From: Nanobdellota archaeon
GTDB taxonomy: Archaea > Nanobdellota > Nanobdellia > Woesearchaeales > GW2011-AR4
Length of the DNA stretch: 55,875 nt
Assembly (NCBI GenBank): GCA_038046385.1
Contig: JBBSWH010000002.1
Location: 1 to 55,875 of the forward strand
Reading direction: 5' to 3'
In this document: positions 15,459 through 43,562 of the stretch, piece by piece
Layout of the letters: each line of letters begins with the position of its first letter
How positions within the stretch are numbered: position 1 is the first letter of the stretch
Position numbers and translations under genes: made by a program
Notes under the pieces: generated by a model
What the model saw: only the letters and a program-made list of their open reading frames with translations
What the model was told of the DNA's origin: nothing
The model's database searches: none

Positions 15459-15530
15459 TGCGCGAGCCGGGATTCGAACCCGGGTGGGAGCCTTGGCAAG
15501 GCCCAATCATAGCCACTAGATCACTCGCGC
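15459..15530 (-). tRNA. tRNA-Gly(GCC)
   Basis: GCGCGAG acceptor stem, GGGCC-TT-GCC-AA-GGCTC anticodon arm, GGTTCGAATCC T arm. Confidence 0.95.
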
Positions 15531-15547
15531 AAATGTAATAAATATAA

Positions 15548-15722
15548 TGGGCCCGACCAGACTTTCAACGACTCTGTCGTTGTAAGCTACGAACGACAGT
15601 GAGTCTGTTTGAACTGGTGACATTCACCTTTCAAAGATTGCTCTTGTAAGGGTGACATCATTTCCCGCCGGCAAACTCAGCAAATTCTGAATTTGCGTGG
15701 TACCGGACTAGATCACGGGCCC
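15548..15722 (-). tRNA. tRNA-Val(UAC) with three introns (about 15661-15700 D-loop, 15630-15644 anticodon loop, 15562-15607 T-loop)
   Basis: Removing 40+15+46 nt gives a 74-nt cloverleaf GGGCCCG..TCACC-CT-TAC-AA-GGTGA..ACCAG-TTCAAAT-CTGGT-CGGGCCCA. Confidence 0.85.
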
Positions 15723-15848
15723 TTGAGTGTTTCGTATTTAAAGATGCTATAAAAAGGTTTTGAAATTTTAAGATTTTAAAACATAGCAGATTCCCTGAAT
15801 TTGCGCTGGTTTTGATGTAAAAGAAGTGCAGTCTAAAGCTGGTAATTT

Positions 15849-16127
15849 TTAGCCATTAGACAAGTATAATAAATGATTGACTATATTAACATAAATGCCT
15901 AACTTTACTGAATCTGTTGCAAAAGCTCTGCTAAGGTAAGAAGTTTTATTGTAAGAATCCCATGTTTCTTCAGGAAGTCTCTTCAGATACCTAAATATAT
16001 AGAAAGAAGGGTCAAACACTAGCCTAAATTCATTAGCATTTGATAAAGGTTGAGAGGTACCTTCAACTCCACGCTCTAAAGAAGTATCACTAGAGCTTGG
16101 AGCGGTAATTTTTTTTGTTAAACTCAT
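15849..16127 (-). CDS. Hypothetical protein
   Basis: 92-aa ORF with TATA-like TTTATATT about 25 bp upstream. Confidence 0.55.
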   Translation of the reverse strand: MSLTKKITAPSSSDTSLERGVEGTSQPLSNANEFRLVFDPSFYIFRYLKRLPEETWDSYNKTSYLSRAFATDSVKLGIYVNIVNHLLYLSNG

Positions 16128-20970: not shown

Positions 20971-22392
20971 TTAATATCCTTTATCCCTTAGCCTTTGCTG
21001 AGCATATTTTAAAACACGTTCGTCAAAACCGAAGTTTAAAGCAACGGTTATCGCGTATCTATAATCTCTCAAAGGCCCTGTTTCTTTTATATGGGGAAAT
21101 GTCACTAGCCTTCTTATGTTTGGAGAGAGTTCTCTTTTAAATGAAAAGTGATTAAACTGCACTCCTTGCTCAGCTTCAAGCGCCGAGTGCAGATTGGGAT
21201 AATGGCTTGAGATTATAAGTTTTGAATTTCCCTGATCAATTATGCTCCTTATCAGCCCGTAAGTCAGCGCTTCTCCGCCTTTTCTTTCTGTTGACGTGAA
21301 CGTTTCATCCATTGCGATAAGCCAGTATGAGCCTTCTGGAGGAGTGCATTCGTTTACGCTGTTGCAGTCTTGGCTAAACGCAGCCATTGAATCCCCTGTG
21401 CCTTTTTCCCTGAATATTATTCTGTCAAAAACAGAGATTCTTGCAGAATCGGCAGGGATCCACATTCCGCTTAAAGCCATGCTAGCAATATAAATTGCTT
21501 TCTTTAAATCAAATGTCTTTCCTGAGCTGTTTGGGCCTTCAAGCACTTCAACAGAAACAGTCGAGTCAAGCGAAGTGTCATTCCCTATTAAATTTGAGCC
21601 ATGGTATTTTTCCCATCTCCCATTCTTTATCACAAAACACCTTTCTTCTCTTGGAACAACCTCCGGTCTCACATATTTATTCTCCCTTGCAATTTTCGCA
21701 AGCTCATAGAAAAGCGCTGCTTGCTGATAGAAAGGTGTGTCAATTTCCGTTACATCCGCAAACGCCATTAATTTTTCTGTGTCAATTGCATCTTTTAAGT
21801 CTTCATAAGTTAATCTGTCATTAAATGGCGGTCTTCCGCCGCTATTCCTCTGCTCTTCTATTTTTCTTTTCCTGATTCCAGATATCTGTTCGCTTAAAGA
21901 TTTCAGATATTCTAAAAACTGGCCCAGTCTTGACCCTTGATTACCAGATATAAAAGAACCGTATTCTGCAGCAATTCCTTCTAAAGTTTTTGTCTTGAAG
22001 TTTGTGCCCAGGCTGTCCGGCAGTTTCTGATCTGGAGTGCATACTGCAATTGCCTCTAATAAATTATTTACATAGTCATATGTAAATAACCCGTCTACTT
22101 TAAGGGAGCTATATTTTGCAGCGGCTTTGAAGAGTTTCCCGTAATCAGCTCCAAGTGCATGAGACATTACTTCAATATTTTTGTATAGCTCATTGTCTTC
22201 AACCAGCTGCCCTATCGTATCGAGCCTGTCATTTATCTGGGTTAAATCTGTAATTGGAGTCTGAATGAATTCCCTTACACTGCCCCTATTCCTCACATGC
22301 AAATCAAAAAGCGTATTTTGAAGGGAATCTTTGCTGTTAAAAACAATGGCTCTTGTTCTTTCATCAAGAGTTTCTGGTTTTGATGTGCTCAT
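20971..22392 (-). CDS. MutS-family ATPase (core + domain V only), short paralog
   Basis: PITDLTQINDRLD, GPNSSGKT, AMDETFTST, SSHY and C-terminal HTH-like segment. Confidence 0.85.
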   Translation of the reverse strand: MSTSKPETLDERTRAIVFNSKDSLQNTLFDLHVRNRGSVREFIQTPITDLTQINDRLDTIGQLVEDNELYKNIEVMSHALGADYGKLFKAAAKYSSLKVDGLFTYDYVNNLLEAIAVCTPDQKLPDSLGTNFKTKTLEGIAAEYGSFISGNQGSRLGQFLEYLKSLSEQISGIRKRKIEEQRNSGGRPPFNDRLTYEDLKDAIDTEKLMAFADVTEIDTPFYQQAALFYELAKIARENKYVRPEVVPREERCFVIKNGRWEKYHGSNLIGNDTSLDSTVSVEVLEGPNSSGKTFDLKKAIYIASMALSGMWIPADSARISVFDRIIFREKGTGDSMAAFSQDCNSVNECTPPEGSYWLIAMDETFTSTERKGGEALTYGLIRSIIDQGNSKLIISSHYPNLHSALEAEQGVQFNHFSFKRELSPNIRRLVTFPHIKETGPLRDYRYAITVALNFGFDERVLKYAQQRLRDKGY

Positions 22393-24725
22393 TTTTGCAC
22401 CCTTCCCAAATATTCTTTTGCATGGCGCAAGATAGCTTGTGAAAGTCCTTGGCCTTCTGCAACAGCAAGCGCATAGTCCATTTCAGTATTGGGCCCTTGC
22501 TTTTTTATGTGAGAGAAAACCAATCCTTGTTTTCCTCTTTCAAATTCAAAATGAGAAAATGTTACTCCGCTTATTCTTTTGTCTCGCAGCATCTCCTGAA
22601 GCGAGGGGTAATGGCTAGTTATTATTGCCCTGATTCTTGGGTCCTTGCTCAATTTCCTTATAAGACCATAAGTCAATGCCTCTCCCTCAAAATAATTTGT
22701 AGATGTAAATGTTTCATCCATTCCTATAAGCAATGAAGTTCCTGCTCCGTTGAGGGCGCTTTGTATGTCTCCAAGTTCCTGAGTCAGTGCGCCGTAGTCA
22801 ACGCCAGTGCTCTTAAGCCTGAAGCGTACCCTGTCAAAAAAAGAAACTCTTGCTGATTCTGCAGGAACATAATTACCTGTAAGGGCAGCAACAGCGATAA
22901 AAAAGTCTTTTCTTATATCGACAGTTTTTCCGCCGAGGTTTGTGCCGTCTTTTATCTCCACCCTCCTATCCGAATCAAGTCTTGTGTCGTTCCTTACTAT
23001 TGTTTGGGCATTGATAAGAGGGTACCATCCATTCCTTATATCGAGGATTCCTTCTGATGCCGGCAATATTTCCGGCCTTGTCCATCCTTCTTGTTTTATG
23101 AAGTCAACAAGCGCAATGTAAGCAGCCAATTTTGAGCCTGAGTAGTCAAGATAATTGTGATGCTTGTCTGACCTGGCAACAGGGGTCTGATCAAAAAATC
23201 TTCCCAACAATTCCGACAGGTCTTTTGGCTTTATCCCGTCTAGCCTGATTAGTTTTTTGGGGCCTGTGCTTTTTTTAAGCGCTTCCCGGATTTGGTCTTC
23301 TGGTATATTTTCATCATCAGGCTGATAGCCCATTTTTTGCAGCAAAGAAGACAAATGGTCAAAATTCGTCACGCCATAACCATCTTCTTCATCTTCTCCT
23401 TCCCTCGGGGAAAATTCTATAAGGGTGCTGTAGCTCTCCAATTCTTCCAATCTTTTTGCGCCGGATTTTTTTAGCTCAGCTTCAAAAATTCCTTTGAGTT
23501 CTGAGAAATCTCTGGGTTTTGAGTCTACAACGCTCTTGAGAAATGAATAAGAATAATGGAAATTTCCGCCTTCCTCTGCCATCTCCCTTAATGGCTCGAG
23601 CAGTACTTGCATTTCCCTTGAATTGGAACTTATTGCGCTTAATGACGCTGAAAATGTTTCATATTGCGTTACAAACTGTCCGGCAATTCTCATAAAATCC
23701 GCGTAGAAATATTTTTTGTGGATTGCATCACCCCACTTTGACCTTAGTGTGTTGGCTGAAATCAGCTTTGACATAGATGAAAGATGTATATATGGTTCAA
23801 TCATCTGGTTTATTGAGCGTGACAAATCTCTGACATGCCCGTAGTGTTCAGCTCCTTCAACCAGCTCTGCATACAATCTTTGCCTGTCTAAAACTTCGTC
23901 TATTGAATTTAATGGAACAAGCCATAAGCTCTCGTACATCTTTTCTATTTGTTTTATTTTTATTTTTCCCATGTCCTCGAGATGTTTGTTTCCTGTGAAT
24001 CTGTAACCATGCTGCCTGCCCCCCATCCAATAAAAATTGACAGGAATCTCAAAATTTCCTGGAGGCGCCCTGTTTCTTCCGAAATATTTAGGCCTTCCAA
24101 CCAATCTTTCAGGCATCTGCACCGTTATTGTGGATCTTCGTACAGGATTTATGTGCGCATCTCTGTTAGGTCTTAAATTCAAATAAAAAGTTCTATCGAG
24201 GAGAGAATATCCACGAAATTGTCTTTCAAAAGACCGGTCATTTTCTGTTTTCATATTAAAGACTTGATCTATTGTGATCTGGTCTATTCTTGGCTGCAGA
24301 GATTGCCTTTCGTCGCCCCTTAAACCAGAAAAATCAACAAGAATTCTCAAATAGTTGGCATTCGGGTCTGCGGGAGTTCTTAGGCTTAGATTAGCGGCGC
24401 TTGTGTCCTCAAGTAATGCAACTATAGAGCCTGGATTTTTACGCTGTGTTTCTGCTAAAAAATGTTCTGGAACTACAAAAAGATCTGGTGTTTTTGCTGA
24501 CTTTTCTGTAGTGGGTTTAGATAACCAATAACCGCCTAAATCAATGTCCCGTACTTCTTCATGGTCAAACTCCGTTTTTTTGTGTGTGTTTATTGGCTTT
24601 CCTTTTTCATCCAAAATAATAACGCTTAATCCAAGGTGGAGTGCCTCATCTAAAGTTATCAGAGTATTAAAGCCCGGAGTTACATCTCTTAGCCTTTCGA
24701 CAAGATTTAAGCCACCCATTACCAT
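22389..24725 (-). CDS. MutS-family ATPase with unknown N-terminal domain, long paralog
   Basis: PLNSIDEVLDRQ, GWYPL, GTNLGGKT, GMDETFTST, TSHY, YALAVAE; 4-bp overlap with the partner gene. Confidence 0.85.
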   Translation of the reverse strand: MVMGGLNLVERLRDVTPGFNTLITLDEALHLGLSVIILDEKGKPINTHKKTEFDHEEVRDIDLGGYWLSKPTTEKSAKTPDLFVVPEHFLAETQRKNPGSIVALLEDTSAANLSLRTPADPNANYLRILVDFSGLRGDERQSLQPRIDQITIDQVFNMKTENDRSFERQFRGYSLLDRTFYLNLRPNRDAHINPVRRSTITVQMPERLVGRPKYFGRNRAPPGNFEIPVNFYWMGGRQHGYRFTGNKHLEDMGKIKIKQIEKMYESLWLVPLNSIDEVLDRQRLYAELVEGAEHYGHVRDLSRSINQMIEPYIHLSSMSKLISANTLRSKWGDAIHKKYFYADFMRIAGQFVTQYETFSASLSAISSNSREMQVLLEPLREMAEEGGNFHYSYSFLKSVVDSKPRDFSELKGIFEAELKKSGAKRLEELESYSTLIEFSPREGEDEEDGYGVTNFDHLSSLLQKMGYQPDDENIPEDQIREALKKSTGPKKLIRLDGIKPKDLSELLGRFFDQTPVARSDKHHNYLDYSGSKLAAYIALVDFIKQEGWTRPEILPASEGILDIRNGWYPLINAQTIVRNDTRLDSDRRVEIKDGTNLGGKTVDIRKDFFIAVAALTGNYVPAESARVSFFDRVRFRLKSTGVDYGALTQELGDIQSALNGAGTSLLIGMDETFTSTNYFEGEALTYGLIRKLSKDPRIRAIITSHYPSLQEMLRDKRISGVTFSHFEFERGKQGLVFSHIKKQGPNTEMDYALAVAEGQGLSQAILRHAKEYLGRVQK

Positions 24726-41425: not shown

Positions 41426-42277
41426 TTATCTCCCCAATATTTTATAAAAAGTGTCAAATATCGGCGTGTCTGTTATCGCTAAACTGTAAGAAATCCCGAG
41501 CTTGCTGCACACATCTTCTATCTTTGCGCAGTGGTCGTCAAGCTTCTGCTGATATTCCATTCTTAATCTAGGGCTTATGAACGTGCGAAGCATTCCTTTT
41601 GTTTCAGAATCAACCAGCTTAAAGTCTCCCTCAAACTTCAGCTCTTTTTCTGTCCTGTCAAGAACTTGAACAATTTTTATTTCGTGATTGCCAAGCATGT
41701 AAAGTGATTCTCTTAACTCTTCTATGTTGACAAGAAAATCCGAAGCTATGACAAGCATAGACTTTGTGCCTATCACCTTTTTGTATTGTCTTATTGTATC
41801 AAGCAGCTTTGAAGTTCCCTTTGGCTTTATCCCATTCAAATGCTGAATCATTGCTGCAAGGTGCCCCATCCCCCTTTTTGGCTGGAACACGTTAAGGTCT
41901 TCTGCAAAAGTTGAAAATTGGAACTTCTCGTTGTCTCGCATTGCAAGATAGCCGAAACCGACGCCAATCATTGCGGCGTAATCAAATTTCGATACTGGCT
42001 TGCCGAAATCCATGGAAGCACTCTTGTCTATTAGTATGTGCACTGTCAGGTTTTTCTCTTCTTCCTGCACCTTGATGAAATGATTGTCTGTTCTTGCATA
42101 GACTTTCCAGTCTATCATCCTTATGTCATCGCCCGGCGCATAGATTCTGTAATCCTTAAACGTCATCCCGTGCCCGCCAGCAAGAGACTTTTTTGATCCT
42201 GTTAAGTTAGAAGTTACCCTTTTGTTCACAACAAGATTGAATCTTGTCAACTGGTCAAGGAAAGATGTTGTTATCAT
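41426..42277 (-). CDS. DUF58 (vWA-like) protein
   Basis: FKDYRIYAPGDDIRMIDWKVYART, DKSASM, SDF. Confidence 0.93.
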   Translation of the reverse strand: MITTSFLDQLTRFNLVVNKRVTSNLTGSKKSLAGGHGMTFKDYRIYAPGDDIRMIDWKVYARTDNHFIKVQEEEKNLTVHILIDKSASMDFGKPVSKFDYAAMIGVGFGYLAMRDNEKFQFSTFAEDLNVFQPKRGMGHLAAMIQHLNGIKPKGTSKLLDTIRQYKKVIGTKSMLVIASDFLVNIEELRESLYMLGNHEIKIVQVLDRTEKELKFEGDFKLVDSETKGMLRTFISPRLRMEYQQKLDDHCAKIEDVCSKLGISYSLAITDTPIFDTFYKILGR

Positions 42278-42375
42278 TTTAGTTATTGATTATTTGATGT
42301 TTTTAATTTATAATTTTTTTAATGTGTTTTAGTTTAATGTTATCCGTTAATGCATTCGTTATTGTTTTTGTGGTT

Positions 42376-42436
42376 TTATTTTTCCGTCCTTCGGACAAAC
42401 GTTACAGCTCGCTGGCACCACAACCAGCTCGCCAAT
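42376..42436 (-). repeat. GCGAGC-hairpin element copy C
   Basis: TTATTTTTCCGTCCTTCGGACAAAC..GCTCGCTGGCACCACAACCAGCTCGCCAAT. Confidence 0.85.
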
Positions 42437-42447
42437 ATATTTTTACA

Positions 42448-42625
42448 GTGCCCTCGAAGAGGGTACCTTTTTTGATGAAACTTTTTTCGAAATGTCGAAA
42501 ATCATTGATTTTCGAGCACCCAGCAAATCTTCGATTTGCGTGGAAAAGTTTCCCAGTGCAAATTGGACAAAGTCCAATTGCACACTTGAGCTCTGCTCAA
42601 GTTGTGTCAACGGACGGAACCGTTG
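42448..42625. repeat. Dense array of six or more short palindromes
   Basis: CCCTCGAAGAGGG; CGAAAATC-ATT-GATTTTCG; GCAAATC-TTC-GATTTGC; AATTGGAC-AAA-GTCCAATT; ACTTGAGC-TCT-GCTCAAGT; CAACGG..CCGTTG. Confidence 0.8.
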
Positions 42626-42626
42626 T

Positions 42627-43562
42627 TTACTTCACCCGGTCTAAAACCGCCTTTATCGCGTCTTCAACAGTCATTCCTTTTCTTTCAGCTTCAAAGTTCA
42701 AAATGACACGGTGCCTCAAGACAGGGTATGCAAGCACATTAATGTCGTCATTGCTCACGTGGTTCCTGCCCTGTATCAAAGCCCTTGCCTTGGAAGCAAG
42801 TGTCAGCGATATTGATGCCCTTGGCGACGCTCCGTACTGGAAGATTTCCTTGTTTGACCTTGTAGCGGCGATTATCTTGACAATTCTCTGTTTTATGTCA
42901 TTCGCAATCGGAACCTGCCTTGTCAATCCCTGCAGAGTCAGCAGATGATTCTTGTTCAGCATGACCTTCAGCTTGTTTTCCCTGATTTCTGCAGCATACC
43001 TGTCCACTATCTCGATTTCCTGTTCAACTGTCGGATACGAAACTTTTATCTTTAGCAAAAACCTGTCTGCCTGCGCTTCCGGCAAAGGATATGTTCCTTC
43101 CTGTTCTATCGGGTTTTGCGTCGCTAAGACAAAAAACGGAAGATCCAACTTGTAAGTGTTGTTGCCGACAGTAACTTGCTTTTCCTGCATCGCCTCAAGA
43201 AGTGCTGATTGTGTTTTTGGTGTTGCCCTGTTGATTTCATCTGCAAGCACGATGTTCGCGAATATCGGCCCTGGCTGGAACTTAAACTGCCTTTTTCCTG
43301 AAACTTCCTCAATTATGTAAGTTCCGGTTATATCAGACGGCATCAAATCCGGTGTATTCTGTATTCTGCTGAACTTCAGGTCCATCAGCTGCGCAAGCGT
43401 CTTCACCGTAAGTGTTTTCGCCAATCCGGGATATCCTTCCAGAAGCGCGTTTCCGTCGCATAATATTGCAACAAGAATCTGCTCAACAGTGTCTTCTTGC
43501 CCGACTATGACCTTGCCCAGTTCCTTTTGCAATTCGTCAAAAACCTGCTTGTAATTTTTCAT
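42627..43562 (-). CDS. moxR: MoxR-family AAA+ ATPase
   Basis: EGYPGLAKT, TPDLMPSDITG, LADEINRA, ATQNPIEQEGTYPLPEAQ.DRF and GASPR. Confidence 0.96.
   Translation of the reverse strand: MKNYKQVFDELQKELGKVIVGQEDTVEQILVAILCDGNALLEGYPGLAKTLTVKTLAQLMDLKFSRIQNTPDLMPSDITGTYIIEEVSGKRQFKFQPGPIFANIVLADEINRATPKTQSALLEAMQEKQVTVGNNTYKLDLPFFVLATQNPIEQEGTYPLPEAQADRFLLKIKVSYPTVEQEIEIVDRYAAEIRENKLKVMLNKNHLLTLQGLTRQVPIANDIKQRIVKIIAATRSNKEIFQYGASPRASISLTLASKARALIQGRNHVSNDDINVLAYPVLRHRVILNFEAERKGMTVEDAIKAVLDRVK

Follow-up and report, generated by a model that had tools for sequence, protein, structure and literature searches.

A 23-nt hairpin unit in the D-loop intron of an archaeal tRNA-Val(TAC) gene is read here, with a probability of about 0.7, as one hairpin of a family of gene-less mini-palindromic mobile elements. 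These elements land in existing introns, and the tRNA-Val copy would be an old loading of a short intron. The gene lies in a stretch of 55,875 nt, the window of this analysis, which is contig C2 of an archaeal assembly of 1.28 Mb (19 contigs, 38% G+C, 85% complete). Positions without a prefix refer to this window, those with a prefix to other contigs of the same assembly, and G numbers denote the genomes of relatives.

The tRNA-Val gene is interrupted three times (Table 1). When 40, 15 and 46 nt are taken out of 15548-15722, ARAGORN folds the remaining 74 nt into the cloverleaf of a tRNA-Val(tac). Archaeal introns of this kind are recognised through the bulge-helix-bulge (BHB), the fold cut by the splicing endonuclease. 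A gene for this enzyme is present in the assembly, with a single PF01974 match of 97.5 bits at C6:72431-72691 in an open frame of 203 aa. The D-loop intron has homologues in tRNA-Val(GAC) at C1:41722-41835 and tRNA-Val(CAC) at C5:30155-30265 of the same genome and in five relatives (G002, G028, G006, G019 and G015). Its borders are predicted from this homology and from a relaxed BHB motif, in which the central helix is complete (4/4) and the two bulges have 3 nt each, while the helices on either side are weak (h 1, h′ 2). The T-loop intron has a homologue in the T-loop of tRNA-Val of G027. It is also 79-89% identical to T-loop introns of tRNA-Glu(TTC) and tRNA-Arg(TCG) in G051 (loci L009 and L027), a genome of another family, and the intron family that it represents is common to several tRNA types.

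Table 1. Features of the tRNA-Val locus and of the intergenic hairpin cluster (window positions)
Feature	Position	Strand	Basis or remark
Intron-less tRNA-Gly(GCC)	15459-15530	-	Rfam at gathering threshold
tRNA-Val(TAC) gene with three introns	15548-15722	-	ARAGORN after in-silico intron removal; orthologues in relatives
46-nt T-loop intron (59/60)	15562-15607	-	Strong BHB in BHB scan: central helix 4/4, h 5
15-nt intron at the canonical position 37/38, border ambiguous by 1-2 nt	15630-15644	-	ARAGORN cloverleaf; homologous intron in G020
40-nt D-loop intron, predicted between tRNA positions 20 and 21	15662-15701	-	Homologues here and in relatives
23-nt hairpin unit, antisense to the tRNA, bulged base near the foot	15678-15700	+	Near the 5′ end of the D-loop intron
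Third, degenerate copy of the unit	15785-15809	+	Upstream of the tRNA-Val promoter region
Dispersed repeat of ~55 nt at the left end of the cluster	42374-42435	+	At least 20 partial or full copies genome-wide, 87-98% identity
Three-hairpin host repeat with two nested insertions	42448-42625	+	Copies at C14:11356-11431, C1:91631-91703 and C11:106027-106152
52-nt two-hairpin mobile module	42492-42543	+	All three other copies of the host repeat lack it
48-nt insertion of two hairpins, unrelated to the module, in this host repeat	42559-42606	+	In the C2 and C11 copies, missing from C1 and C14

A sequence-only reading of this DNA had matched the unit with a second one at 42521-42543 in an intergenic hairpin array. 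The two sequences are as quoted there and agree at 19 of 23 positions. All 18 bases (8 + 10) outside the 5-nt centre are identical, and beside the loop a T-A pair in one copy faces a C-G pair in the other, which is a compensatory difference. The unit was also said to end at the intron boundary; this is true to within 1 nt, the unit lying 1 nt inside the 5′ end of the intron as that border is predicted. With the central five bases left free and up to two mismatches allowed, the pattern occurs at exactly two sites in the window and at none in any of 100 dinucleotide-preserving shuffles of it, so that it is commoner than expected at random. At up to four mismatches the whole genome has four sites, namely the two in the window, C1:41791-41813 and C5:68082-68104. 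Chance as the source of the match is ruled out by the shuffles and the genome-wide scan. The looser third copy at 15785-15809 is real and degenerate, since by eye about 21 of 22 aligned bases agree and three bases are extra. It lies about 40 nt past the stop codon of a small ORF (15849-16127) and upstream of promoter-like A/T boxes of the tRNA-Val gene.

The second unit is part of a cluster (42374-42625) that separates two minus-strand genes, with the stop codon of a MoxR-type AAA ATPase gene (42627-43562) on one side and the start of a DUF58 gene on the other. The cluster is a mosaic of dispersed repeats. Two copies of its ~55-nt repeat sit between an A/T-rich, promoter-like stretch and hairpin elements. 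To the right, a repeat of three hairpins acts as host to two insertions. The first is a 52-nt module that precisely interrupts the loop of the middle hairpin of the host repeat. It consists of hairpin A (ATGTC...GAGCA, 42492-42518) and hairpin B (42521-42543), the latter being the second unit of the reported match. The other insertion, of 48 nt, has partial copies at C5:78615-78651 and C1:80902-80931. Searched against Rfam at the gathering threshold, nothing in either locus scored except the tRNA-Gly, and permissive scans of both loci gave matches at chance level, so the hairpin cluster corresponds to no described RNA family. Read contigs from four DNA runs were compared with 41800-43200, and those of two runs are identical to the filled form over 42391-42585. 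A joint skipping 42487-42603 was considered as an empty allele and rejected; its shorter side has 22 letters and it bears the sequence of the empty paralogous repeat, and it is read as a further repeat copy. Among sequencing runs recorded as RNA, none contains this stretch.

The module is mobile DNA, and one of its copies has been inserted into a pre-existing tRNA intron. This copy (C5:68080-68135) is 96% identical to the module over 56 columns and lies inside the T-loop intron of a tRNA gene at C5:68066-68233. The intron measures 84 nt, as against 31-32 nt in two module-free paralogues (C1:115963-116077 and C6:173702-173817). Because the paralogues share the intron and the difference is the module, the module must have entered an intron that was already present. 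Together with the empty sites elsewhere, this clearly recent case supports the proposal that palindromes insert into tRNA introns. The three genes are class-II tRNA-like; after removal of their introns ARAGORN assigns the anticodons GAT (C1), GAT (C6) and AAG (C5), and an alternative fold has a 5-bp stem with an anticodon loop of 9 nt. Just upstream of the C5 gene, C5:68270-68303 is a tRNA stub, an inverted 34-nt partial copy of that gene. A second stub of this sort, at C10:10281-10306, repeats 26 nt from the 5′ end of the tRNA at C1:44286-44404.

Filled and empty sites are also found outside tRNA genes. A host repeat of ~165 nt with six copies carries modules of 52-54 nt at three positions, one of them reversed, and each position has empty copies. 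The repeat itself is MITE-like, with terminal inverted repeats of 15 nt (C9:92927-93222, with copies on C5, C1, C3, C17 and C13). A two-hairpin element of the inverted-pair type, 57 nt long, lies in frame in a methyltransferase gene (C1:34200-35441, minus strand; locus L061). It provides 19 codons directly before the NPPY motif, is missing from 18 of 18 aligned orthologues and leaves the frame open. A sequence search of the PDB with the methyltransferase domain gave no match at 1e-5. A family-like hairpin also occurs at C3:23050-23074 within the gene for phosphoglycerate kinase (ORF 22248-23504). The enzyme is presumably about 11 residues longer there than expected, and this may be a second in-frame insertion. 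Across six comparisons of filled and empty sites, the junctions have 1-4 ambiguous bases (A, AA, AAT, AT or TGTC) and no long target duplication. Three of the six sites, judged by reading the sequences, are in loops of pre-existing hairpins.

The hairpins are widely distributed in the genus, which was sampled with 43 genomes. The search pattern for hairpin A leaves its loop and its two inner stem positions free, and the reversed pattern serves as the control. Hairpin A has 15 matches in the present genome and is found in 34 of the 43, with copy numbers from 0 to 15 per genome; its reversed control gives 0 matches in the 43. Two stem positions of hairpin A are variable. All 13 copies here have Watson-Crick complements at these positions, in seven different dinucleotides, as do 27 of 29 copies at the loci of relatives, the other two being G-T compatible. 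Hairpin B (C.G.AAATC...GATTT.CGTGG) occurs in 22 of the 43 genomes against 0 for its control. In relatives it is mostly paired with a different left hairpin, and the ATGTC type is seen at 1 of 29 sampled sites. The tRNA-Val unit fits the frame of hairpin B (C.G.AAA ... TTT.CGTGG), bulged base included, and belongs to this family. The description of such units as small mobile palindromes is thus borne out by the empty sites and by the spread of the family over the genus.

Copies of these and similar elements are found in several tRNA introns of the genome, whose tRNA genes are heavily interrupted, several of them by two or three introns. A single-intron search with ARAGORN yields 24 tRNAs and misses tRNA-Val, and the Rfam tRNA model has 18 matches above threshold. 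A finder based on the acceptor and T-arm gives 45 candidates; combined with the ARAGORN and Rfam matches, 39 genes were kept by eye (38 for the masked search), a list that is incomplete and unvalidated. With the tRNA genes masked, 6 of the 38 give 16 BLAST matches elsewhere in the genome, compared with 0-2 per shuffle in 20 shuffles. Four of these six match through an intron, and the remaining matches are exons or gene stubs. A second element family is present in the D-loop intron of a tRNA-Arg, where 53 nt are 94% identical to C4:37556-37608. It recurs, in reversed orientation, in the anticodon-loop intron of a tRNA whose anticodon is CGT, and also in the D-loop intron of tRNA-Val in G027. 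By eye, 6-7 of the 39 listed tRNA genes have a family-like hairpin in an intron. Palindromes are thus found inside non-canonical tRNA introns, as had been suggested, at D-loop, anticodon-loop and T-loop positions and in both orientations, and both the module and the second family occur in tRNA introns other than that of tRNA-Val. No SSU or LSU rRNA was matched in this 85%-complete assembly. As counted with a crude tRNA finder, tRNA genes hold 1 of about 20 hairpin A sites here and, in relatives, 1 of 30 hairpin A sites (a T-loop intron in G065) and 0 of 29 hairpin B sites. Introns look like tolerated places, and the raw counts give no sign that they are preferred targets.

The suggestion that splicing neutralises such insertions holds less firmly. 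The recent insertion on C5 displaced the 3′ half of a strong BHB, moving it 52 nt away. Relaxed or shifted motifs remain there, compared with a central helix of 4/4, h 5 and h′ 3-4 in the paralogues, and the C5 tRNA may no longer be spliced correctly. A different arrangement is seen at C15:15240-15474 (minus strand; L063), where a complete tRNA-Ser(CGA), a family hairpin and a flanking stem of 9 bp lie within the T-loop of an outer tRNA-Ser-like gene. The nested tRNA-Ser looks like a replacement copy inside an old gene.

Orthologues of tRNA-Val in the genus exist with the unit, with other hairpins, with short introns and without a D-loop intron. A pattern search for the D-loop region gave 38 matches in 27 of the 43 genomes, and almost every one is a tRNA-Val gene whose D-loop is interrupted. 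At position 20/21 a unit-type hairpin is present in the five relatives named above and in all three tRNA-Val genes here. Related hairpins with other stems occupy the position in G061 and G024, and the second element family does so in G027, G030, G010, G005 and others. The introns of G001 (12 nt), G066 (14 nt) and G034 (15 nt) are short and hairpin-free, and they align with both ends of the 40-nt intron. Among the loci found by BLAST, G020, G026, G003 and G029 have no D-loop intron. The simplest reading of these forms would be the addition of a hairpin to a short intron; the comparison is unrooted, and deletion from the long form is also possible. The idea that palindromes seed introns is not supported; at this D-loop site relatives carry the 12-15-nt introns free of any hairpin.

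Intron gain by a palindrome can nevertheless be framed differently, in a form that we consider rather unlikely. A palindrome in a tRNA loop, placed beside bases able to pair with the exon, would create a relaxed BHB that a broad-specificity endonuclease could cut. The gain would be the insertion itself, followed by trimming to cores of 12-15 nt. The distribution of introns in tRNA-Gly(GCC) fits this reading, short of proof. Among its 15 matches in 14 genomes of the genus, the T-loop intron is absent from 9 and measures 13-34 nt in the other 6; three of these six introns are little more than one family-like hairpin. The shortest introns encountered, 12 nt in the D-loop of tRNA-Val in G001 and 13 nt in the T-loop of tRNA-Gly in G027, both start with ACAA.TGC despite their different loops and tRNAs.

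It is also conceivable, and in our estimate unlikely, that the hairpin of the tRNA-Val intron is intrinsic to it, a helix passed on by vertical inheritance that helps the precursor to fold for splicing. The module would then owe its hairpin B to recombination, to gene conversion or to drift within a family that was already similar. In the eight hairpin-type tRNA-Val introns, 95.7% of the hairpin cells are paired and two pairs have changed on both sides. In two of the eight a G-U pair is possible on the tRNA-sense strand only, which indicates that the tRNA-Val copy is now under constraint at the RNA level. The hairpin may be an intrinsic helix because of this conservation, the sense-strand G-U pairs and the lack of an empty allele within the close lineage. 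In the whole genus, moreover, the unit with its exact flanks occurs in six tRNA-Val introns and, outside them, just in two module copies of this genome, so that the intron could be the source of the module's hairpin B. Three positions distinguish the hairpin B common in the genus from these units, and two of them make up a compensatory pair. Against an intrinsic helix, the intron hairpin has the frame and the bulged base of hairpin B, whose family, in the 22 genomes that have it, is almost always outside tRNAs. Unrelated mobile hairpins occupy the same intron position in other species, and short introns at the same site have no hairpin at all. The hairpin appears to be old, being common to five other species and three isoacceptors here, and its resemblance to the family, taken alone, suggests a mobile origin. 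We favour a reading in which a hairpin of the B family entered a short intron long ago and has been retained there as an RNA structure.

Host signals spread by regional duplication rather than by transposition would be a quite improbable source of the hairpins. Signals for transcript 3′ ends, termination or protein binding would suit the many copies directly past stop codons, such as the cluster beside the AAA ATPase gene and the copy at 15785-15809, as well as the strict covariation that preserves the stems. They would not explain precise insertions of 52-57 nt in unrelated contexts, with flanks that run on undisturbed in the empty copies, nor the occurrence of both orientations, the copy translated in frame within an enzyme gene and a copy number between 0 and 15 among genomes of one genus. 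That the elements are excised introns which, by reverse splicing or reverse transcription of their RNA, found their way back into the genome, with the intergenic copies stemming from tRNA introns, is scarcely credible: intron families do extend across tRNAs and taxonomic families, as the T-loop intron of tRNA-Val and its G051 counterparts in tRNA-Glu and tRNA-Arg do, but one and the same element is found both along and against the direction of the tRNA, module borders differ from intron borders and one element is in frame in a coding gene.

On the preferred reading of a mobile hairpin family, a typical element would be 52-57 nt long and consist of two adjacent stem-loops with A/T-rich upper stems and a bulged base near each foot. 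Its copies would enter new DNA sites in one orientation or the other, with 1-4 ambiguous junction bases and no long target duplication, often at an A-rich spot in the loop of an existing hairpin. The form recognised in this process is presumably the single-stranded hairpin. Copies would persist where they do little harm, as in intergenic repeats, in frame in tolerant parts of proteins and in tRNA introns, and intron copies would probably be removed from the transcript by the splicing endonuclease and a ligase. The D-loop intron of tRNA-Val may have begun hairpin-free at about 12-15 nt, gained its hairpin in an ancestor of several species and kept it in the RNA fold.

The two bulged hairpins on the same strand, the missing target duplication and the loop targets resemble, by analogy, the single-strand transposition of IS200/IS605 or REP elements. 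The only Y1 (IS200-like) transposase gene of this genome (C10:41826-42304) is flanked by G+C-rich hairpins unlike those of the family. In the genus, a Y1 transposase is present in 16 of the 34 genomes with hairpin A and in 7 of the 9 without it. The Y1 enzyme was rejected as the mobiliser because the ends do not match and the two do not co-occur in the genus. TnpB had no match above the cut-off in this genome. Searches for Y1 and TnpB in this genome, and for Y1 across the genus, thus yielded no mobilising enzyme.

How archaeal tRNA introns arrive is an open question, and the genus offers a tractable system in which to address it. At a single tRNA position the intron can be absent or measure from 12 nt up to 45 nt, and its variable part consists of identifiable mobile hairpins, of which copies and empty sites are also seen outside tRNAs. 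The origin of a short core that can be spliced is thereby set apart from the subsequent loading of that core with mobile cargo, two steps usually treated as one. A 2014 review, in the portion available, describes the mechanism of tRNA intron transposition as unknown (PMC4090602). In Asgard archaea, copying, mobile elements and reverse transcription have been tested as sources of introns; the accessible part of that report gives no general route of arrival and leaves the question open (bioRxiv 10.64898/2026.10.13.758758). A literature search whose coverage excluded subscription journals and supplements returned no paper on palindromic elements in archaeal tRNA introns.

A close archaeal precedent is in the Thermoproteales, where transposition of introns among tRNA genes has been described (Fujishima et al. 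2010, as cited in excerpts of PMC4090602 and bioRxiv 10.64898/2026.10.13.758758). According to the same excerpts, near-identical sequences occur there in introns of different tRNAs and at different positions, and the transfer is thought to take place at the DNA level by an unknown mechanism (PMC4090602; bioRxiv 10.64898/2026.10.13.758758). The present case is similar in that near-identical sequences occupy introns of different tRNAs at different positions. It differs in that the shared part is a sub-intron module with borders of its own, which is also found outside tRNA genes with empty sites, and in that the host belongs to the DPANN archaea. In Caldiarchaeum subterraneum, the available text links an integrase-type element of 1.9 kb, which uses a tRNA as its attachment site, to intron gain (Sugahara et al. 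2012, PMC3293823). In both cases a mobile element changes the intron content of tRNA genes; the elements described here, however, are about 50 nt long, carry no gene and produce no tRNA duplication.

Among short palindromic repeats with a known or parental transposase, the REP/REPIN sequences with their RAYT enzymes and the IS200/IS605-derived PATEs have short imperfect hairpins, two per element and on the same strand. They lack terminal inverted repeats of the cut-and-paste type, cause no target duplication and are often inserted in hairpin loops. The present family shares with REP/REPIN the dispersal of short imperfect palindromes, but no cognate Y1 (RAYT) gene is flanked by the repeats or co-occurs with them. 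Like PATEs, the elements have hairpins near both ends and, in the six comparisons, were inserted without target duplication; unlike them, they have no full-length tnpA parent with the same end hairpins in this genome. They depart from both groups in that their ends are within 1-3 nt of the hairpin feet. Cut-and-paste MITEs, with terminal inverted repeats and a target site duplication of fixed length, are not matched: there is no duplication here beyond the 1-4 ambiguous bases, and symmetric ends are confined to the inverted-pair variants.

The Rickettsia palindromic elements (RPEs) are gene-less palindromic repeats found in intergenic DNA, in RNA genes and in frame in protein genes. The elements described here are likewise gene-less and palindromic, with a stop-free copy in frame in a protein gene, that of the methyltransferase. 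They differ from RPEs in being about one half to one third of the size (52-57 nt), in consisting of two separate small hairpins and in being archaeal and located in tRNA introns. With this family, the palindromic elements described in bacteria would gain an archaeal member of about 50 nt that tolerates being translated, spliced or nested.
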